This document shows, in pieces, positions 7,098 to 48,609 of a stretch of DNA of 64,000 bases; position 1 is the first letter of the stretch, and every line of letters starts with the position of its first letter. Source of the DNA: Podarcis pityusensis. Lineage: Eukaryota. Both the position numbers and the translations under genes were made by a program. The notes under the pieces are model-generated. The model saw nothing but the letters and a program-made list of their open reading frames with translations. It made no database searches and was not told where the DNA came from. The stretch is taken from assembly GCA_964106645.2 (NCBI GenBank), contig OZ067038.1, one strand, 5' to 3'.

Positions 7098-7890
7098 TTT
7101 GGAATATACCATTTCTGGGCTTGATGAAAAAAAAAATCATTCACACAGTTGTTAATAAAGAAAATTAGCAGAATTGATTCCATTGGCCTGGGTGTGTGTG
7201 AACCTTTTATTCCATTATTTCGTTCTTTCATTAAGGATTCTTTTTTAGAAGCATTCTGAAATCCTGAACCAAAAGTTAGTAAGGGGGAGGAAATGAAAGC
7301 ATTGCTTGTTAGGTTATGTGAGTTTAAGGCTGAAATCCTACACACACTTATCTGGGAGTAAGTCTCATTGCTCAACAAAGTCTACGATTTGACTGTGAAC
7401 TACGCTCTTCTAAAACTCAGTGATGGGCTGTAGTTACATAGAACCCCCTGCTCCGGGATCCTATTAATTACCTCATCTAGCAGGCCTGATCCAGCAGGCT
7501 CTCCTTATGGACTTGGTAACTGGACACACCTACTTGCTTTCTTTTCTCTATTACTGCAACTTGCCATCAGTATTCCAGCTGCTGGAACAATCTTTGGTTC
7601 CGTCTATGACTCCCACTTCTCCAGTGTTTCCTGAGCTCCTATTCTTCTTCATTTCTATTCACCACAACTCCCATCACTGCTGGCAATTGACCATGGTGGC
7701 TGGAGCTGATGGAAGTGTGAGGTCAACAACATCCAGAGGGCCATAGGCTCCTCATCACAGCATCAAAACTGACTTTGAACCTGTCCTATCCTAAGGGTGG
7801 GATTCAGCTACGTTTTACACAGAGGAGACTCCCTAAAATTGATGACCATGACTAAGTTATATCCATTAATTTCAGTGGGTAATTCTGAGA

Positions 7891-8067
7891 CAGTGGTTTC
7901 CAATTAGTCTGAGGACCCCATGGGGTCCACATAAACCACTCAGGGGGTACATGGCACCATTCACATAACAAAAACTACACTAGAGATATCAAAACTTTCA
8001 AAAGTAAGGAGTCCATGGCTTTTGAAAAACAAGGGGCCGACAGTCCTTAGCTAATTTAGAACCACTG
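7891..8067. mobile_element. hAT-type MITE nested in an older palindromic MITE (about 7795-8098)
   Basis: Termini CAGTGGTT...AACCACTG; 8-bp flanks TTCTGAGA/CTCTGAGT (2 mismatches); outer element GGGTGGGATTC...GAATACCACCC. Confidence 0.7.
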
Positions 8068-8764
8068 CTCTGAGTAAAGCATAGTGGAATACCACCCTAA
8101 GATTTCATGTGGCAGCAAACTGCATAATGCACATAACTCTTCAACACAGTCTGGCCACATTGATGTCAGTAATGACACTTCATGGACAGACTCTCATTGT
8201 CCCATACTGGAATATCTCATTAGTTAACCGACTGTAACTTATGACTTCTATGCAACTCTATGTCAATGCAGCCATACCCAAATGGCTACACACTTAGCCA
8301 AGTGTCTCATTATCCACACGTTTTGGATGTCCTCCAGACTATTTGGATAAATGAAGATGTGCTTTATAGCACTGCTTAATTTGTAGAATGAATTCTCACA
8401 TTATTGATTTTTTTGATTTTTTTACTTCAAAACCACAACCACTCTATGGTAAAATCACGTGAGCCTTTTCACAACCTTGAATCTTTACTTAAAAGATTAA
8501 AATTGCATCATAATATAATGATGATATCACAATGCAATTATTAACTTTCTTTCTGAAATAAAGAATTTAAATTTGGCACCAGCTGCCAATAAAAGAGTTT
8601 CATTGTACTTTGTTATCTAGTTATAAAAGGCCCTTGGGCTGGCAGATGCTTCAATACACATTTATTTGCCTATTATCTTTTTTTTCTTTTTTGTGGCCCG
8701 ATTGTATAACCTCCCAGTCAGTCATTTCTGATAAATTGAAACGAAGGACCTATCATAGACATAT

Positions 8765-8833
8765 TTAGATAGATAGATGAATGATAGATGGATGATAGAT
8801 AGATGACAGACAGACAGACAGATGATAGATAGA
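8765..8833. repeat. (GATA)n/(GACA)n microsatellite
   Basis: Direct reading. Confidence 0.9.
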
Positions 8834-9204
8834 AATAATTTGTGTCATTATCAACAACAAATATAGTTTGATAACAGTTATGGAAATACAGAATATGCAG
8901 TCAAAGACTATATGCAGATATTTTCATCTCTCTCTGTGTTAAAAACCTTCTAAAAATACAACTGCCATTTCCCTAAAGTACATAATGATGATTTCCAGTA
9001 ATTTTTGCAGGTTACCATCAGCCCATTAATGTACATGGGCAGTATTTTTCAAATAACACAGACTTTATCTATGCATTATGATGACAGAAAGTGGGTAGGG
9101 TTTTACTTTAGTGTATTTTATTGTATTTAGGCTTACAGCCTTTTGAATCTGTCTCCCCCAACTGGGTTCATCTTGAGGGAAAGTGGCTATGAGAATCCTA
9201 TGTG

Positions 9205-9700
9205 GTCGAACCGCATAGCACCAATCTTGAAGCACTTGTACTTTCTGCCTATATGTGACCAGGCTGCATATGTGCCACCAAGCCTGAATCTAGATGTTGC
9301 TATTAGCATGTATGCTACATGACTTGAGACTCAAGTATATTGAGCAGTGTCTCCACCAGAATGGGGTGGAGTTAGCCTTGCTTCTGCTTACCAGAAGAAG
9401 AAGAGGGTCTAGCTGGCACTGAGGTCAGGCCTGTGTGAGTACACCAGCAGAGTCTATCTGGTGCTCGCACTGGTGACCTTGGCAATAGTTCACTCCTCCC
9501 CTCATTTCTGGCATTGTGGCTCTGCTCCACCAGGTGAGACATTTCTAGTATCAACCTGCCCATGAGTTAAGATCAGCAGGAGAGGGCCTTATTGTTGTTC
9601 CATCACTGAGAAAAACTTAAGGTGCAGTGGCACAGAATAGGGTCTTCTCTGTGGCAGCACCTCCTTTATGGAATTCTCTCACCCATGAGGTGCATCTAGA
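9205..9700 (+). mobile_element. Decayed L2 LINE 3' fragment with internal insertion
   Basis: CGCATAGCACCAATCTTGAAGCACTTG (HITP.L..LHWLP-like) and AGGGTCTTCTCTGTGGCAGCACCTCCTTTATGGAATTCTCTC (RAFSVAAP.LWNSL-like). Confidence 0.65.
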
Positions 9701-10306
9701 TGTTATTTTTCTCTGACACACATCAGCCAGTAGGGTGATGAAAGTTGGAGTCCAGCAACATTTGAAGGGCCAAAGGTTCTCCACCCCTGCTCTAAACCAA
9801 AATTTGGAGGTTCAGGATGTATGTACTTGTTCTTTCCCTTCCGATTTTCCCTCCTTCCTTTCCTATCATGAGTTGATTTCGCCTTTCCTTCCTTAGGTTA
9901 AGAATATTCCTAGGTAAGTTATGAGACCACATTGGCTTTTTAAATCTGAGCTGTATAAGAGCATGATGTTCACCTCATATTCAAAGCAAGCATTATGAGT
10001 TGCTGAGATTCCTCTTTATCAGCCAGGAAATGCAAATCGTGAAAACATTGCAATTCAAAACCATGGTTTGAAATGGGTTTTCAAACTATGGTTGGGAAAC
10101 AATCATGGTTAATGCTAGCTGTAGTTTACCCAGGTTGGATGTTGGCAAATTTTGGTTATAGGAAAATAGGCAAATGAGGTGTCTGAAGGAAGAGGAATTT
10201 TGTAATGAGCCAACAACATGCTCCTGATTCTCCCATCCATGAGGTCTAAGCTGGACCTAGAAGTTATTTATATGGAAGAGAAAACAGAGAAATGAGACAT
10301 GCACAG

Positions 10307-16002: not shown

Positions 16003-16735
16003 CAAAGTGAGGCAGATGCTCACCGAGGCAAGACGGTTTGAGCATAAAGTGCCAATCCTGGCCCGACTGCACTGGCTGCCAATTAGTTTTGGCGCCCAAT
16101 TCAAAGTACTGGTTTTGATGTATAAACCCTTATATGACTCAGGTACACATTATCTCAAGGACTGCCTCTGTCCATATGAACTGACCTGGTCCCTGCGGCG
16201 ATCACCATCTGAGGCCGTTCTTCAAGTGTCCAGGGGCAACATGAGAACAGACCTTTTCTGCGGTGGCTCCTTGCTTGTGGAAATCCTCTTCCCAGGGAGG
16301 CTCACCTGGGGCCTAAAGTTATGTAACAAAGACACTAGGCAAAAACATTCCTCTTCTCCCAGGCTTTTGGCTAATTAAACACTACAGTGGTACCTCGGGT
16401 TAAGTACTTAATTCGTTCTGGAGGTCCGTACTTAACCTTAAACTGTTCTTAACCTGAAGCACCACTTTAGCTAATGGGGCCTCCTGCTGCTGCTGCGCCG
16501 CCGGAGCATGATTTCTGTTCTCATCCTGAAGCAAAGTTCTTAACCTGAAGCACTATTTCTGGGTTAGAGGAGTCTGTAACCTGAAGCGTATGTAACCTGA
16601 GGTACCACTGTATGTGGCATTTTAAACTATGGGAGGTATTGTTTTTGTTTGCTACTATATTACATATTTTTGTGCTGCCATGTGATACTTGGATGAAGGG
16701 CAGTATAGAAATTTAATTAATGATAATAATAATGC
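16003..16735 (+). mobile_element. L2 LINE 3' fragment interrupted by a MITE
   Basis: Translation HKVPILARLHWLPISFGAQFKVLVLMYKPLYDSGTHYLKDCL is a typical L2 ORF2 C-terminus; tail GAAGGGCAGTATAGAAAT..(TAA)n at about 16695-16735. Confidence 0.85.
16385..16610. mobile_element. Tc1/mariner (Tigger/pogo-like) MITE, copy 1
   Basis: TIRs CAGTGGTACCTC / GAGGTACCACTG, TA duplication on both sides. Confidence 0.93.
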
Positions 16736-36458: not shown

Positions 36459-36817
36459 GGGACGCGGGTGGCGCTGTGGGTAAAACCTCAGCGCCTAGGA
36501 CTTGCCGATCGTATGGTCGGCGGTTCGAATCCCCGCGGCGGGGTGCGCTCCCGTCGTTCGGTCCCAGCGCCTGCCAACCTAGCAGTTCGAAAGCACCCCC
36601 GGGTGCAAGTAGATAAATAGGGACCGCTTACCAGCGGGAAGGTAAATGGCGTTCCGTGTGCTGCGCTGGCTCGCCAGATGCAGCTTGTCACACTGGCCAC
36701 ATGACCCGGAAGTGTCTGCGGACAGCGCTGGCTCCTGGCCTCTAGAGTGAGATGAGCGCACAAGCCTAGAGTTTGTCAAGACTGGCCCGTACAGGCAGGG
36801 GTACCTTTACCTTTACT
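36459..36817 (+). mobile_element. Full-length, CpG-rich (young) Sauria SINE
   Basis: GGGACGCGGGTGGCGCTGTGG head (A box), GGTTCGAATCC B box, (ACCTTT)n tail; flanked by TACAG on both sides. Confidence 0.95.
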
Positions 36818-36819
36818 TA

Positions 36820-37048
36820 CAGCGGTACCTTGGGTTACAAACGCTTCATGTTACAGACTCCGCTAACCCAGAAATAGTACCTCAGGTTAAGAACTTTGCT
36901 TCAGAATGAGAACAGAAATTGCGCGGCGGCAGTGGCGCAGCAGCAGTGGGAGGCCCCATTAGCTAAAGTGGTACCTCAGGTTAAGAACAGTTTCAGGTTA
37001 AGTACGGACCTCTGGAACGAATTGAGTTCTTAACCAGATGTACCACTG
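36820..37048. mobile_element. Tc1/mariner MITE, copy 2 (opposite orientation to copy 1)
   Basis: TA-CAGCGGTACCT...GTACCACTG-TA; internal sequence is the reverse complement of 16385-16610. Confidence 0.92.
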
Positions 37049-37399
37049 TATTATATACTCTGGTTCAGGATGCGCACCATTAAGTATGAGGCTTTTAGAA
37101 GTATTTTAAATGTAACTGCCAGGTTGCTGGAACAGAAGAAGGATATAGTAGTACAGGTATAAAAAGTGAGAGAGTGGTTGAGAGGGAGACGTCAGCCAGT
37201 TTCACCTGGCCTTTTAACTCCTAAAAGGCCAGTTTCACCTGGCCTTTTAACATCACAGTGTATCTGTGATGTGACAAGATCGACTGGGAGAATCTAAAGA
37301 ATCCATAGCTTCCCCAGGCCTCCAACCTAGTGAGACAACTATAGTAACTCTGGAGGCTGTGACGGACCTTGGGGTCTCAAATCTCAGTGCACCCTGTAT

Positions 37400-39933: not shown

Positions 39934-40328
39934 CAGCGGCGTAGCGTGGGTTGTCAGCACCCGGGGCAAGGCAAGTAATTTGCGCCCCCTAACCCCTAAC
40001 CTGCCGCCGCTGCCAGCTTCTTCTTGCTGCTGCCTGGGCTGGTCTGGTGTGGTTCTCTCCCGCGCTCAGCGCTGCGCTGGGCGGCCACTGCACTGTCCCT
40101 CCCCCAGATAGTCCCTCGCTCTCTCTCCGCACCGCACGCCTGGCACCCACCCCCTCCACAGTGGGCGGCGACCCAGCGGCTCGGATCGGATTCGCACAGC
40201 CAGCACTGCAGTGAGAGAGAGTGAGTGAGCCAGGTAGGGGCAGAGAGCTGCGAGTGCGAGCGCGCACCCCCCAGATGTTGCACCCGGTGCGGCCGGCCCC
40301 CCCCTGCACCCCCCACGCTACGCCACTG
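39934..40328. mobile_element. Young CpG-rich hAT-type non-autonomous element
   Basis: 17-bp TIRs CAGCGGCGTAGCGTGGG / CCCACGCTACGCCACTG (1 mismatch); perfect 8-bp TSD GTGGGCAA (39926-39933, 40329-40336). Confidence 0.95.
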
Positions 40329-40558
40329 GTGGGCAATTGCCACCCCCCCCCAAAAAACAGCCCATCCTTTAGACCAACAGAACATCAATCAACAATGTGA
40401 GTAACCAGGCAGGGCAATAGGGTGAAAGGTACTTCTTCATGCAACCTGGTCCCAAGTTGCTTAAAGCTCTGCAGGTCAAAACTAAAAGCTTCAGCCGGGC
40501 CTAGTAGCATATTGGCAGCCCACCCAAGCTGCTCCATTGAGAACAGTGTAGCTAATGC

Positions 40559-40781
40559 ATGAGAAGAGAAGACTCCCTGGAAAAGACCCTGATGCTGGGA
40601 AAGATTGAGGGCACAAGGAGAAGGGGACGACAGAGGACGAGATGGTTGGACAATGTTCTTGAAGCTACCAACATGAGTTTGACCAAACTGCGGGAGGCAG
40701 TGGAAGACAGGAGTGCCTGGTGTGCTCTGGTCCATGGGGTCACGAAGAATTGGACACAACTAAACGACTAAACAACAACAA
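40559..40781 (+). mobile_element. BovB (RTE clade) LINE 3' end
   Basis: MRREDSLEKTLMLGKIEGTRRRGRQRTRWLD is the BovB ORF C-terminus; 3' GGTCCATGGGGTCACGAAGAATTGGACACAACT and (CAA)n tail; TSD GCTAATGCA/GCTAACGCA. Confidence 0.95.
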
Positions 40782-42600
40782 TGCTAACGCACACTCCACT
40801 CAGGACCCTAGCTGCTGCATTTTGCACTAGCAGTAGTTTCTGGACACCACCCTTTTCTGGCCTGAAAATGAGGCCACAACATGGTGGAGAGAGAGGAGGC
40901 CTGCCCTAAATAAACATATTACTCTGTGTGGACTGCCATAGAACATTTTAACTCTCACACAGCCACTTATTGTTTAAGTTCTTTATAAATTGGATTTATT
41001 GATGGAGTTCTAGGCATTTGGTGAGCTTGGAGACAGGAATCATAAATCATATTCCTTCTTAAATGGAACAACCCAGTCAGGTGCTTGTTTGCTTGGAAGT
41101 ATGCCCCACAGAGTTCAAGAGAATCTACTTCTAAGAAAGTGTCCACAGGTGTGAAGTCTCACGTCCACTTCATCTTTGAGCATCACCTTTTGTTTAATAA
41201 TAATATGGGCACCAAGCCTTAGTTTGATCAGCATTTTTCTTCCAGGTCAGTTTTTGTAATGGCATCAAGGTAGCATATGCAGTCATTCGCCCACATATTC
41301 TTGACTGTACTTTGCCAAATGCAATTAGTAACCAGTTTTATGGCTTTCGGACAAACAAGCTATTTTCAAACATCACAATGAGCTCCTTATTCCTGAGCTC
41401 TGTTGAAGTCTCAGTAGGATACATAGGAATTTGCCTTTAATTAGGGCTTCTAATAGAAATGTCAAAAGAAAGATGCAGCTTAACCTTAAGCATAATGGAA
41501 AATTAACAATTTGTTCAGCTACCATATTTTCCTAGAAACAGACCCCTTTTGATGTTGGAACGCAAATAAAGCAGGCCAGATCCCCTATAAAAGAAGGTTA
41601 ACTCTCATGTCATTTTAAAATAAAGCTAAATGGATGAAACTGAAACAACCGTCTCTGTTTCTTCCCATGCCAAAGGGTAGAACATGCAACCATTTAAGCT
41701 ACTGCATTGCTTTCTTATACACTGCTTTCTGATAAAAATCAAAGCATTTCATTCACTTTTCTGCTTTTCATGTTTCGTTTGTAATGTGTGAAGAAGGACT
41801 GGAGCTAAGAACCACGAGATTCGCTTTGTGTATTGCGGTGGTAGAGACAGATAAAGTACATTAGAAATTGCTCATGATTCTGAAATGCTCAATTACCCAT
41901 CATAATGAAGATACAAGTCATGAATGGGATGAGGGTCACTCACTGTATTGAAAGAAGAGCTTTGCAGCAGATCTCTCAGATAAAGGTCAGAGCCTTCAGT
42001 AGAGAAGTGCACAAGAAGGTCAGTGCATCATATCTAATCCCCACACCGGAAAATATAAGCCCAACAGACAATTGTGCACATCCCTGTTGACTCACCTCCT
42101 AGCCATTTCAATATGGTTAGGATGGCGGGCTCTACATAAAAAGCGGTATTCCAGCATCTCAGACCAAACAATCATGAAATTAAGAATCCAAGTCTTTAGT
42201 TACCAGATATCCTGACTGTGAAGACGAATAACTAGTAATGCACCATGCACAGGTTAAGATCCCAAAACTGAATGGACACATTGTGAAACTTCTCTTTCCA
42301 AAAGCTACCACGATAGGGAGCAGTTCAGAAAAAGTCAGGTTTTGAGTTGACTCTTGAGAAACCCAACTTTCAAGTTAGCGTTCTGCCCACCAACGCCTCT
42401 TGGGAAATGCCCCCCCCAACCAATTCCAGCAGCAGCATTTGTGACAGTTCAGCCTTGAGCAATACAGTAAGGTACTCCTCCAGAAAGAAATGCAATTGAA
42501 CTGTAAAATGCACCTTCACATAAGCATGTCGGCTCTCATGTGAGCTGCACCCTGTGAAGATGATCAGCAGTAAAGCATGTTCTCCTTCTTGGAGACCACA

Positions 42601-43358
42601 TGTTGCGATGGGTGCTAACAAGACACCCCACTGTTGCTGGGCAGGTAAAGAATTTTAGCCACCATATCCATTGGTTCCTATCTGTTGCTGGGGAGATTTA
42701 TATGTTGCCATTTTGTGATTGACAGCCATAGCTTATATATATGCCCTGCACACAGTGTTGAGCTTCCTCTTTTTGCTGGATGCATCGGATCACCCGCCCT
42801 CCCTCCCTATTTTAGGCTGTTTGCTTGACCTTGCTATGCCTATCATGGGGTTGTCTGCTTTGGGGCAGGGGCCCGGTAGGAATTTTGTCCATTTGGCTGA
42901 TTGGCTGGTGCCATTTGGGTTTTGCCTACTGCGTAGCAAATTGTCACAACTTGTAAGGTTGTGGTTAGGAATTGGTTTTATTAATTTGTTGGTGGAGGGG
43001 TACGGATTGGCTGTGCCTGTCCCTCCAAAATACTGCTCCAGGGGATCGCCATGCTTTTGTCCGAATCCCTGTCAAGGGGCTAGGGCCACGCAAGAGCCCA
43101 TGGGAGCATTTGGGGAGAGGTGAGGCATGGTACCCAGCTCCGTCTCTCTCCCCAAAATGTTTTCCCTTTCTGACTTTGCGGGCGGGTGAATGTCAGTTTG
43201 TCCCCATGCGGGGGCAGATAGTCACAACCAATGTCTAAGCAACCACTCACATCGCTTGTAATTTTAATTGTGGCCAAAAGTATGCCAAAAACCTTAAACT
43301 AAAATTATGTGTCAATTGTGCTTTATTTGGGGTGGCTTGGGGACCTCGACGCGCAACA
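42601..43358 (+). mobile_element. Solo LTR (758 bp)
   Basis: Perfect 7-bp inverted termini TGTTGCG...CGCAACA; flanks CACA/CACT (possible 4-bp TSD); TATA-like TTATATATAT at about 42733; GT/T-rich U5-like end. Confidence 0.75.
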
Positions 43359-45029
43359 CACTATCTTGTGTCTCAAAGCATGTGAAGAAAGGCATGCCAA
43401 GCGGCCACCACCTCACAGGCAGAAGTAAAGTGCCTCACTAGTTCCTGAAGCTGCCTGAGAGTCACACCTTTGGCCTTAGAACAACTTTCCAGCCTCTTTC
43501 TGGAGGTCAGCACCTTACTCTAAGGGAGGCAACCAGTCTCACTCACCATGTTAAATTGGTGGCTGGCACCTTCATTTTCTTTACAGCTAAGGGGAAGCCA
43601 ATATAATCTGCTCGTTCCTTAAATTAATGTATTTAGGGCAAATATTGTCCTTAAGTGGCAGGGCCTGCAAAAAGCAAATTATTGAGATAATTAATGACAC
43701 AAAGCAAACCAGCCTTGCCTTGAGGATCCACCATATCTCTATGGTGGCTGGTATCCATTGGGACTGTAAGAGCTTAAGGCAGGAAGCCAACAGTAGGTCT
43801 AATCAGAGCAAATAACAGGTGAAACCACAGCCAATGGCAGGCAGAACCAATTAATTATGGTTTTGTCCCCATCCTCATCCCTGCTGTGTTCTGCAAGGAC
43901 AACACTCAGAATAGAAGGAGGAAGCTGATAGCCAGCATCAAGCTGACACCCCTAGACTGGTTGTAAGTATGAAGCTAGGCAGATGGGGGTGGCTGAGGGT
44001 AGACTGAAGTTGGTGAGGTAGTGCCCATTTGCCCTAATGGACTGGTCTTCTCTCTCTCTCAAGCACATTTTGGGCTGCACAGGGGCTGCAGGGAGGATGT
44101 TGTAGGAGCAGAAGTCTGTTCCATTCACATGCAGACACCACTGGATTTCACCCTGATAAAATTATTATGGCATAAACTTTTGTGGACGACACTTCACTTC
44201 ATCAGATGCAGGAAATTATCTTGGGACTGTGGTCTAGCAAAAGCACACACAATTCCAATTAGCTGTGCCAAATTCCGGACTGTTTTGAGGATTGTTTTGT
44301 ACAGATTATTTGCCCTGTTGATTAAACTGCCTGCAAAGCAGTCAATTTCCAGATACAAGTAGAGCCCCAGAAATATTATGCAGCCCGCAATTTGCCAGTT
44401 GTCTCTTGACAAAGACTGAGAGTAAGCCACTTACTACTCTTTTTATACAATGAATCACTTTTTCCCCCTTCTTGCAAAAAGGGAATCGTCTAATGAAAAT
44501 TCAAATGTATTGCTTTCCAGGATACAAACATAAGCCCAGGCACTTCATATACTCTGTAAATAAGCCTCATTTGCTGCACTGTGTCAGCTAACAAGTGATT
44601 TTAGTTTTACATGCAAACTCCAAGGGGAAATTTTTCAAATGAAAACAGGTAGCTTCATTTCACGTCCAATAAGCAAACATTTTCAAAATATTTAGACATC
44701 TGTATATAATAGACTTTATAAACTGTTTGTTCGGAAGCGTAAATAGATCTCTCGGTGTTTGAGTTACCGTCTATGTTTCTCATTGTAGAAAACAAAACAA
44801 AAAAATTCTACCTACAATGCAAAGCCATATGTCTTATTCTTCTTTCCTTTATGTTAAAGGTTTTCAGAGTCAGGCCTTTACAAGCAAAGGAAACAACTTC
44901 TTGTTCATGAGGCCTGATTCACCAGTGTGGTGGTGACCATGTGGGTGGGCACTTGGCATTGCAGATGCATGGGTTTTACAGCATGCAGAACAGCGTGGAA
45001 AGCACCTCCTTGTGTAGTTCTCAAAAATG

Positions 45030-45215
45030 TATGGGGACACCAGCTGGTTCAGAATGCAGCAGCTGGGATATTGGATATTGACAGCAAAGCACTGCAGCAG
45101 TTAGATCCCACCAGTTCTTAAAGATCTCCATGGAAATTCATGGAGGATAAGGTTACCAATGACTACTAGTCATGATAGCTATCTTATAACCCCCTAGTGT
45201 ATTGGAGATCTGTAC
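45030..45215 (+). mobile_element. Highly decayed L2 fragment
   Basis: CAGCTGGTTCAGAATGCAGCAGCT (QLVQNAAA motif) followed by CCCACCAGTTCTTAAAGATCTCCATGG (ITPVLKDLHW-like). Confidence 0.65.
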
Positions 45216-47014
45216 TAGGGGGTCAGTTTGTTTCGAAACACCATCCAAAGTGTTGCCCTGAACAGTTTGGTTTCCGTGTAGCAGAGGGTGCAATCCCATA
45301 CAGTTACAGATTCCCAACTGGTACAGCACCCATTTGACTTGCATAAAAGCAGCCTCCAAACCACAGTCACTGCACTTGAGAATATGGTTGAAGAGAGGGT
45401 GCTAACGCTTGTCCAGGGTGGAGGCAGACCAGGCGAAACAGAGAGAAATATGCACATGTGCAAGAACAATGAACATTTGCACAGTGTTAAGACTACAACA
45501 ACCTATGATGCAGTGTGAATGTGTGTAATACATGCATAAGCAAAAACATTCATGTCCTTTAATGGAAATGAACAGTTGACAGAATTGAAGAAATAGTGAG
45601 GGCACCACAGTTCATATGAGACAAGGCTGCTTTACTATGAGTACATCTGCATATGAATTGTCAACCCGGAAATAAACGTTATTCCGAACTAACCCTTATT
45701 CATAGTTCCATTTACAACTGCAGCATTCTTTATATTACCTTCACATTTTTGAGCTAATCTCCACAACCATGAGTGACAGACACACTTTTAATGCGTGTGG
45801 TTTTTTGTTTTTTTTAAAGTATCTCAGAATTATAACAAGAAGTCGGGGGACACAACAAGCCACATCACAACTCTGTTGAACCCATGGGCCATGTTGCTCA
45901 CTTTTGACTGAAGGAATGATTAGGACAACCACTAGCTCAGTTTTTTTTTCCGTAGCTAATTTTGCTACTTTTGAAAAGAAATATATTTTATTCATCATCG
46001 TATCACTTGGATATCAAGCTGGCTCCCTTTGTGAATCATTAAGAGTATGCCTTTTGTGAAATAATATAAAATCATCCACCAGAGAAAAGGACATTAACCG
46101 CTTGTGCTTTGGAGCCAAAAACTTATCTAAAGAGTATTTCTACCAGGCTAACTTTTACTTATTTTGCTTTGATATAGAGGGTGCCAGCATCCCAACCAGA
46201 GCCTATGGAGGGTGGGCGGGGGGGGGGGGATCTCATTTGTTAGAAGCCTGAGAAATACTTACTTTTTAACGAAGTTCACTACTTAAAGACTTTACATGGT
46301 ATGATATTGCTGGGAGCTGGAACCTGACACCCCCTTCTCCTGCCTTGCCTTTTCTTTCTTCACATATTTGCTTTTATCAAGTCAGTTTTACTCAAGTGAC
46401 ACTGAAATATGGAGATTTTTCTGATCCTTTCTTTTTCGAGAAGGAGCTTATCAGTTGTAAAGCCTACATTTTTTAATGTGAGCTTTGATGTTAACAGCCC
46501 CAGTGCTTTTCTTTCTTATTTGGGGCATTAAGTTCAATTACATATTCAAAGTATCTGTTCAGTGCTTTTCCTAGATTTTTTAATAATTCAAATGGCTAAG
46601 GTTTTTTTAAGGTCTCTTTCATCGATGTTTCATATATTTTAGATATGTGATTCAGGTTCAGTCCAGTCTTTCCTATCCATTTTTCCACTTTAGTGGCTAA
46701 TACTGACCAGCAGTGAATACTTTAGTTTAGGTTGTTTCATGCATGTGGAGTAGCAAGGAATCTATGGAGTAAAAAATAAAATGGAACAGCTGGAATAGTC
46801 AGTACTGCCCTGAGTATGTACACTCATTTCCCAAGCACTTCCAAGGAACTGTGTCTCCACAGCAGAAATGGGGGATCAGTGGCCTGCAAATATTTCTCCC
46901 AATTTACCTTGAATTTTCCTGTAAGCAAAATCTGGTGGAGCTCAGGGAAGGGCAGAAGCCCCCTCAGAAACTTTATTCTCCTTATTGAAATGCATATGGC
47001 ATTCATTTTATATA

Positions 47015-47256
47015 CAGTGGTACCTCAGGTTACATACACTTCAGGTTACATACGCTTCAGGTTACAGACTCTGCTAACCCAGAAATAGTGCTTCAGGTTA
47101 AGAACTTTGTTTCAGGATGAGAACAGAAATCGTGCTCCGGCGGCGCGGCCGCAGCAGGAGGCCCCATTAGCTAAAGTGGTGCTTCAGGTTAAGAACAGTT
47201 TCAGGTTAAGAACGGACCTCTGGAACGAATTAAGTACTTAACCTGAGGTACCACTG
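47015..47256. mobile_element. Tc1/mariner MITE, copy 3
   Basis: TA-CAGTGGTACCTCAGGTTA...TAACCTGAGGTACCACTG-TA (18-bp perfect TIR); internal TTCAGGTTA repeats. Confidence 0.95.
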
Positions 47257-48609
47257 TAAACACACAAACTCTTTTGGCTTTCCTCTCAGTTTTTTGGGGG
47301 TATTTTGCCTATGAATTGTCAGTGTGAAAGCCTGAAGTCATTCCAAAACTTCAGACAGAGCTCAAGCCACTGTTAGCCACTGTAATCTCTAGTTTCCCTC
47401 CTTCCAAAACTTATCTTGTGGCGTGAAGGAAAGGGGGACTGATAGTGGCTGAGTCCTAGTCCTTAAGTTCTCAGTTTACTGGCACCAGTGAAGGGTTCCA
47501 AGCATACTCAGAATCATCCATTGACATTAGACACACGGCTCAAGCCGTAAACCAGGAAAGTTGGAAACTGCGTATCAGAAGTCACCCATGTCTTATGATG
47601 TCTGCTGTGAGGCTTCCCAATAGCATTCCTGCATCACAAGGATTAGTTTAGGAAGAGGGTCTTGTACCAGACTGAGCACATAACTTCAAGGGCAGGGGGT
47701 GGACTCAACATCAAATGAGCTCAGGGAACAAACTCATGAAGCCACCCTTCCAACCCCCTCCGTTATGAGGTATCCCTTGCTCCAAATTAAAATTGAAAAG
47801 GGTATCTTAATGTTACCGTTTGACAGGAGACATAGCACCCAGAAGGGAAAGTTGCTTCTTGTTGGGACTTTGCTCTGGCTTCCAACCCAAAGGCTTTTTA
47901 GCTCCGAGCAGCATAAAAGGGTAGTTCACCACTGTAGGAGCCTCCTGCCTCCATTGCAGATTTACTAGTCACAACACTGGTTTTTGCCATAATCCTGAAT
48001 GTATTCCAGCAAAAGACTATACAGTTGGCTGCTCTACAGCATTCATATGAACCTTCCAAGAAAGTTTTCTAAAGCTGGAATTATTTGCACAGTCCCAGTG
48101 CCATTTTGATTGCACAGTGTGCTCATATTGGCATTGTACTTGTTAGGAAACTTTTCAGAGTTTATTGGAAATACACATTAATAGTAAACAAGAACTGAGA
48201 TTGGCTATGGCTAGATACTTGCAAACTGTCCTCCCATAGGCAAAAGCTCTTCCATAGCAGGGACTATGGGACTGTGGCTGCTGATAAGTTGGAACTGCAT
48301 GGGCACCCCTTGATTCTATACCTGCCAACATGTGTCTCATTCACAGGAAGAGGATGAAGAGCTAGAAGAGGAAATGGGGAAATGTTGTTGGCCCCATTCC
48401 TTTTAGCATTATACTCATTGAGGCTGGACATCCAAGTATGGGCGTCTGAAAATGGATGTTCATTGAATGTGGATATCTTACAGGTTCAGAGCAAGATGTG
48501 CATAGGCATGAACAAGATCTGGAACTCTGAACACAATGCTGCCACAAGTCTGCATGGAGCCCCTTTCATGGATGAAACACACCAAGAAGCACTTCAATGT
48601 TTCATTCTT

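Follow-up and report, generated by a model that had tools for sequence, protein, structure and literature searches.

An ENE-like RNA hairpin is conserved in the single-copy spacer of lizard Ngaro retrotransposons

Introduction

The closest known system for the elements considered here is the Ngaro superfamily with SGNH hydrolase, exemplified by Xenopus DIRS-53_XT with its split direct repeats (PMC9210276); solo AB repeats are known from Cafeteria (PMC8547959). As far as the available text of these sources goes, the Xenopus element and the solo AB repeats match the lizard elements in their A1-ORFs-B1-A2-B2 order, their RT, YR and GDSL/SGNH ORFs, the occurrence of 3'-repeat solos and the lack of a target duplication. 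The lizard elements differ in that a unique spacer of 162-225 nt, holding a conserved RNA structure, separates A2 from B2; that text describes neither a spacer nor a structure of this kind. The making, protection and priming of RNA in split-repeat Ngaro and DIRS elements have been little studied, and a conserved domain that occurs once per element offers a concrete handle on them.

The structure in question resembles an ENE. ENEs are defined by a U-rich internal loop next to G-C pairs, with G-C pairs flanking the loop, and four consecutive triples support a triplex (PMC7583470). More than 200 have been predicted in plant, fungal and slime-mold elements and in stickleback retroviruses, and about ten have been confirmed (PMC7583470, PMC13541005); the stickleback retroviruses are thus a precedent for an ENE in a vertebrate mobile element. 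Arabidopsis Evade/Copia93 has a tested ENE, located after the ORF and before the 3' LTR, that increases mobility (PMC12501189). The lizard structure shares with Evade and with the plant and fungal transposon ENEs and dENEs, as those accounts present them, a U-rich loop between G-C-closed stems in the spacer between ORF and 3' repeat, upstream of the poly(A) site. It belongs, however, to a different retrotransposon order and a vertebrate host, and its function is a prediction; where the plant and fungal dENEs have two U-rich domains, it has one main and one small pyrimidine loop, a three-way junction and a predicted tether. With KSHV PAN and MALAT1/MEN-beta it has in common a single U-rich loop with about 4-5 U per side and flanking C-G and G-C pairs, and with MALAT1 a 3' end that a helix would keep close to the loop. 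It differs from PAN and MALAT1 in that no tRNA-like element was seen, in the extra purines at the lower edge of its loop, and in tracts shorter than those of MALAT1. A literature search whose coverage excluded the main ENE survey found no ENE or RNA structure for DIRS/Ngaro or squamate elements.

Results

The element in the window

The window is the whole 64 kb stretch of lizard DNA analysed here, and an earlier note on it had described an ENE-like hairpin within a solo LTR. A query of 42601-43358 against the genome gave at least 41 matches at no fewer than 40 related places (40 of 4401 candidates were scored). When 30 copies were aligned, the common sequence proved to begin about 30 bases further left than the query, at AAA-GCG (42572), and to end at CGC-AA (43356). 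Mean identity of the window element to 29 close copies is 88%, and identity to full-length elements, over their A2-spacer-B2 end, is 71-73%; on these alignments we assign it to an old subfamily of Ngaro (tyrosine-recombinase) retrotransposons, as a solo A-spacer-B remnant (Table 1).

Table 1. Features of the Ngaro remnant and its spacer structure in the window.
Feature	Position	Strand	Basis or remark
Solo A-spacer-B remnant	42572..43356	+	30 aligned copies agree on both ends
Repeat A (split direct repeat with putative promoter)	42572..42792	+	aligns to A1/A2 of full-length elements
TATA-like box in A	42734..42742	+	TATA-like word, same place in aligned copies; putative promoter
Spacer C, single-copy, between A2 and B2	42793..42960	+	
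Pyrimidine tract ending AG/G	42793..42816	+	putative, 3' splice site-like; many, not all, subfamilies
Three-way junction	42831..42939	+	outer stem 42831-38/42932-39, side hairpin ~42847-73, ENE-like arm; predicted, intact families
ENE-like arm, whole	42874..42931	+	
ENE-like arm, lower stem	42874-80/42925-31	+	
ENE-like arm, U-rich internal loop	42881-87/42920-24	+	
ENE-like arm, upper stem	42888-91/42916-19	+	followed by small pyrimidine loop and apical stem
Spacer tail	42943..42950	+	conserved; complementary to the 8 bases that follow AATAAA in B; long-range tether predicted
Repeat B with long closing helix	42961..43356	+	aligns to full-length elements
Broken poly(A) signal	43264..43275	+	short deletion takes out AATAAA, by alignment

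This assignment replaces the solo LTR of the earlier note. The ends are AAA-GCG and CGC-AA instead of TG...CA; no target-site duplication is apparent among the 30 copies (4 bp in 3/30, against a shuffled mean of 2.1, and 5-6 bp in 0/30); and the full-length partners carry split direct repeats and a tyrosine recombinase, with no integrase family among six ORFs. Helentron and Penelope readings were likewise rejected in view of the split repeats and the recombinase. The hairpin had also been placed in a transcribed R region; its actual place is the spacer, a part of the full-length RNA that is not repeated and lies close to the 3' end. The TATA-like box does sit 140 nt upstream of it, as had been said. 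Repeat A starts at the AAA core of the B/A junction. A 10-bp hairpin (42572-42601) opens repeat A, and at the B/A junction AAA forms the middle of a short inverted repeat, as expected for a recombinase site, with AA-like bases flanking insertions on both sides.

AATAAA is kept in 28/30 copies. On the + strand of 42790-44200 in the window there is neither AATAAA nor ATTAAA, so that no replacement signal occurs within 1.4 kb. Because its poly(A) signal is gone and it is a solo remnant, we judge the window copy to be decayed and probably inert.

Full-length relatives

A right-end-to-left-end junction pattern found five matches (control, 0), all of which are 3' ends of longer elements with the layout A1-ORF1-RT-YR-GDSL-B1-A2-spacer-B2. 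Four of the five loci are 7.26 kb long and 99.9% identical, with an A1 of 219 bp, a B1 of 426 bp and a spacer of 168 bp. Both repeat pairs are visible in all five and in 14 of 20 further loci picked by recombinase matches. The ORFs match RVT_1 (E 4e-14), Phage_integrase (E 1e-4) and Lipase_GDSL (E 9e-4), the latter two under the Pfam cut-off, and gave no methylase match. Split repeats, RT, YR, an SGNH hydrolase and no methylase thus identify the parent elements, by layout and domains, as Ngaro. There are 871 recombinase relatives, the best named ones coming from lacertid lizards, then geckos and anoles. A metagenome scan for non-lizard Ngaro DNA returned one prokaryote-like integrase only, and a viral scan none; the 150 matches of a PF13472 search were taken as LINE esterases from frame lengths.

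The spacer measures 162-171 nt in 11 full-length elements and is longer in the most distant clade. Within each element B1 and B2 are 98-100% identical, which indicates that B is re-templated every cycle.

Several loci depart from this plan. Seven (L050, L054, L055, L057, L058, L060, L066) are probably non-autonomous Ngaro with degenerate, partly doubled RT/YR/GDSL remains. L050 and L054 have common sequence after A1 and different A-spacer-B modules, with A1 equal to A2 in each, a pattern that suggests module exchange with A1 copied from A2. In L053, L056, L062 and L067 the elements stop after B1 and have no A2-spacer-B2, the reciprocal of a solo A-spacer-B; the solos could be products either of recombination between A1 and A2 or of short circles joined through B. 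At L068:1-674 and 8403-9901 a full-length Ngaro is inserted in a 176-bp tandem array, and in L055 (oriented 7780-9014) a young element stands directly beside an older window-type solo, possibly after insertion at a related junction site.

The hairpin in the window

Sequence inspection located the stems and loop where the earlier note had put them. The minimum-energy fold of 42874-42931 (+) is the hairpin described, at -19.1 kcal/mol (z -2.41; 5/200 shuffles equally stable), and pairing probabilities in this copy are 0.77 for the lower stem and 0.79 for the upper stem. With 10 flanking bases per side the z-score is +0.37, so that folding energy alone does no better than chance. The upper stem UCCA/UGGG of the earlier note is present in the window copy, but its opening U.G pair is atypical: position 42919 is U in 27 of 30 close copies and G in only three, the window copy among them. 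The family 3' tract is therefore U5, and the U4/U4 loop of the window copy is one U short of that in those 27.

A descriptor of a U-loop between G-C-closed stems, which is optimistic in that it was composed after the hairpin had been seen, matches only the hairpin on both strands of the 64 kb window, and gave one match in 60 shuffled windows. Rfam over 40000-46000 returned no family at gathering score and five weak matches, none overlapping the hairpin. A covariance model whose training set included the window copy puts the structure at the same place and on the same strand, detects no second site in the window and still recognises older families, with scores as low as 23 bits.

Conservation across families

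The hairpin is no artefact: many families of lizard Ngaro retrotransposon retain it, once per element, in the single-copy spacer. The descriptor matched once per spacer in 17/22 element loci (in one locus together with a nested old copy) and never on the - strand; the five element loci that have no spacer gave no match. The hairpin is kept across clades whose recombinases are 45-75% identical. In a distant clade (L068/69/71), whose recombinase identity is about 55%, blastn matches the window element over 42867-42951 only. Identity to this clade is 73-79% for hairpin plus tail, against 52-55% for A and 59-60% for B. In a third clade (recombinase 45%) the hairpin is kept with its stems changed.

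A spacer-tail motif has 4054 exact matches in the genome, against 26 for a control. Pair and loop conservation were scored in 90 of the first 100 listed tail-motif places, a sample that, having been selected on the tail, is silent on conservation of the tail itself, for which the recombinase-picked and B-picked sets are informative. The strict descriptor passes 44 of these 90 loci. Eighty-one were parsed and nine dropped (six lacking the 5' anchor, four of these apparently chance motif matches; two lacking the upper GG; one lacking the lower stem). A B signal lies upstream in six of the 81 copies and the remaining 75 look solo.

The earlier note had named conserved U-tracts and compensatory stem changes as the checks for an ENE, and both were found across many subfamilies. 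Lower-stem pairs 1-6 are kept in 76-80 of the 81 copies. Pair 4 of that stem is paired in 78/81 (UA 49, AU 16, CG 8, UG 5; shuffle mean 48, maximum 59), pair 5 in 76/81 (shuffle 67), and upper pair 3 in 76/81 (AU 62, UA 14; shuffle 55), counts that are inflated by relatedness of the copies and reflect perhaps 3-5 independent changes. Among 22 picked representatives, 98.8% of cells are paired, against 28-53% in slid registers, and three pairs have changed on both sides. In an ENE, G-C pairs immediately beside the U-tracts form the A-minor receptor; here the second upper pair is kept in 80/81 (the first is fixed by the parser) and the lower G-C pairs in 79-80/81. The lower stem has P >0.5 in 38/66 decayed copies. 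The G.U pairs in intact families favour the + strand.

The loop is 88% U (714/815 bases in the 81 parsed loci), and the ENE-like anatomy of a U-rich loop between stems holds across many subfamilies. Opposed U-runs number six in 4 copies, five in 14, four in 37, three in 15 and two or fewer in 11, so that 55/81 have at least four and 70/81 at least three, and the short-tract subfamilies fall outside. The 5' side is 4-10 nt long and the 3' side 4-9 nt, and length varies by U's added on both sides. Read from the lower stem, the loop begins with an A opposite a G (81 and 73 of 81), then a purine opposite a pyrimidine, then 3-4 U opposite U; the lower G-C pairs are thereby set apart from the U's by the A.G and purine-pyrimidine positions. 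In PAN and MALAT1, no such positions stand between the G's and the 5' U-tract. The least variable letters are the A, U and U that follow the lower stem on the 5' side and three U's and a G on the 3' side. Six copies are U2/U3 and two have a G inside the 5' tract; short-tract loops cluster in subfamilies and so were inherited from active parents.

The larger fold and the poly(A) signal

The hairpin is one arm of the predicted three-way junction. The 5' strand of the outer stem is present in 76/81 copies, and the outer stem has P=0.15 in the window copy. Downstream, the helix that closes B (~42965-75/43228-38) pairs at 12 consecutive positions in 53-62 of 63 copies, with compensatory changes, and has two changes in the window copy. 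Covariation demonstrates selection on the lower stem, the third upper-stem pair and this long helix. By folding B out, the closing helix would let the poly(A) tail start beside the spacer structure; the hairpin lies about 320-370 nt upstream of the conserved AATAAA, the signal deleted in the window copy.

We predict that the spacer tail pairs over a long range with the poly(A) site region. The complementarity spans 8-10 bases at and after the end of AAUAAA and can cover the last two A's of the hexamer. It is the only 8-mer complementarity between B and spacer common to all four families tested, set against a chance rate at which about 2% of B 8-mers have a complementary partner in the spacer. 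With the RNA cut 10 nt past the hexamer, the predicted tether has P 0.76-1.0 in five of six families and P >0.5 in 49/66 copies, and with B uncut P 0-0.46. Both strands are nearly invariant. No covariation accompanies the pairing: a matching change was found in 0/22 copies with a changed downstream strand and in 0/4 the other way, and the one locus, on C2, that stands in both variant lists is within chance. In the window copy the tether was lost along with the hexamer.

Equilibrium folding in six families gave an unpaired probability for the hexamer of 0.18-0.57 in B2 and 0.21-0.73 in B1, the value being lower in B2 in four of six. Retrocopies ending in a poly(A) tail, which would mark where cleavage occurs, were searched for, with no match. 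A genomic A-rich third strand such as that of MALAT1 was considered and rejected, A-runs after the hexamer occurring in one clade only. A hammerhead core and an Sm site, considered by eye against their consensus, were rejected as not conserved across families.

RNA reads

Four raw RNA runs, read to 6-12% of each, contain almost no reads on the ORFs of the young element. Over the conserved blocks there is low depth on two strands, and 87-93% of the reads continue unlike L004. This sparse coverage shows no pile-up of transcript ends and, at low depth, no splice joint. With AATAAA lost from the window copy and RNA reads that show no transcript ends, the earlier suggestion that such copies donate promoter and stabiliser modules to host lncRNAs is without support.

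Discussion

That the spacer structure is a real cis-element of the family we regard as highly likely. As to its role, we suggest, with a probability of about one half, that the hairpin is an ENE-type clamp that would bind the poly(A) tail on the full-length RNA, shielding it from decay. The starting points are an element laid out as A1-ORFs-B1-A2-spacer-B2, with its hairpin once, in the spacer, and selection, as seen by covariation, on the lower stem, the third upper pair and the helix closing B. Transcription would begin in A1. The B/A junction would be retained only if the RNA passes B1 and continues as far as the AAUAAA of B2; since only such RNA holds the junction, copying should, judging from the anatomy, need an RNA that starts in A1 and includes B1, A2 and B2. 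Among full-element RNAs the spacer would be present only in those reaching B2, and because RNA ending at B1 lacks it, an ENE would enrich the replication-competent RNA at the expense of these shorter transcripts. Once the RNA has been cleaved, the spacer tail is predicted to pair with the bases after AAUAAA, and closing helix and tether together would bring the start of the poly(A) to the foot of the three-way junction. The tail could then climb the coaxial stems and reach the loop from the lower-stem side, as it does in PAN and MALAT1, forming three to five U.A-U triples next to the near-invariant G-C pairs. No conserved genomic A-rich tract was found, so that poly(A) itself would have to supply the third strand. 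The extra loop purines, the subfamilies with 2-3 opposed U's and the tether that does not covary weaken this poly(A)-clamp reading.

More tentatively, and with some doubt, we would extend the proposal to squamate, and perhaps all vertebrate, Ngaro: these may carry a tethered ENE, built as a three-way junction, in which the spacer tail docks the poly(A) site and the U-loop clamps the poly(A) tail, stabilising only read-through RNA and presenting its 3' end for reverse transcription.

It is possible, on the doubtful side, that the spacer domain is instead a protein-binding replication signal, used in packaging or as a platform at the RNA 3' end for the start of RT, with the U-loop as recognition surface. 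It would fit such a role that the least variable loop letters are specific ones and not a tract length, that short-tract subfamilies have spread, and that the domain stands immediately before B, a repeat that is re-templated each cycle and whose 5' boundary does not shift between clades. We know of no established account of Ngaro priming. The terms 'priming' and 'primer binding' do not occur in the available text of PMC7192593. Loop length, however, is free, with U's added on both sides, and this is easier to reconcile with poly(A) as the partner than with a fixed site for a protein. The spacer might also select the poly(A) site, rendering the AAUAAA of B2 usable while the identical signal of B1 is skipped, whether by a change of fold, by acting as an upstream enhancer rich in U, or through the motif at its start that resembles a splice acceptor. 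B1 and B2 have the same signal and only the preceding sequence differs, the predicted tether contacts the hexamer only in B2, and the acceptor-like motif starts the spacer in many subfamilies; yet that motif is absent from one clade, the symmetric U loop is left unexplained, and the B2 hexamer is not opened more than that of B1 in the six families folded, which counts against a simple folding switch. We consider poly(A)-site choice unlikely as the main role. Both it and a replication signal are compatible with a poly(A) clamp.

Retroviral CTEs lie between ORFs and 3' repeat and have purine-rich loops. The spacer structure has the same location and is a stem-loop with internal loops, and it could in principle serve nuclear export or retention of the unspliced full-length RNA; its loops, however, are pyrimidine-rich and Rfam has no match, and we find a CTE-like role highly improbable. 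A chance fold without function is the least credible reading of all. The z-score obtained with flanks is what such a fold would give, and the window copy by itself is likely non-functional, but covariation, the conservation peak and the one-per-element occurrence largely refute chance for the family.

The single window copy is by itself of little weight; what matters is that a covarying domain adjoins the second of two identical poly(A) signals. If that domain is an ENE, tested transposon ENEs would extend from plants to a vertebrate tyrosine-recombinase element, and a tethered architecture would be added to those described. The natural series of loops from U2/U3 to U6/U7 also lends itself to testing how small a poly(A) triple helix can be and still work. 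Should the tethered-ENE reading hold, the module, with its more than 4,000 copies in the genome, would amount to a reservoir of stabilised last exons ready for use.

Other observations

A stop-free frame of 134 codons (42719-43123, +) spans the spacer in the window, and one of 171 codons is similarly placed in a young family; the 134-codon frame has no Pfam match and is probably a chance product of GC-rich sequence. Pfam matched none of 30 of the 38 listed window ORFs, and no host gene was identified among them. Seven small contigs (C48, C88, C156, C204, C216, C222 and C331; L036-L043) have strong bacterial-type integrase matches and are possibly contaminant or symbiont DNA in the assembly. 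A short repeat with inverted ends, unrelated to the hairpin, occurs in three window copies (16376-16615, 36813-37057 and 47008-47258) and at L048:1300-1480; it is abundant and has very deep coverage in all four RNA runs.
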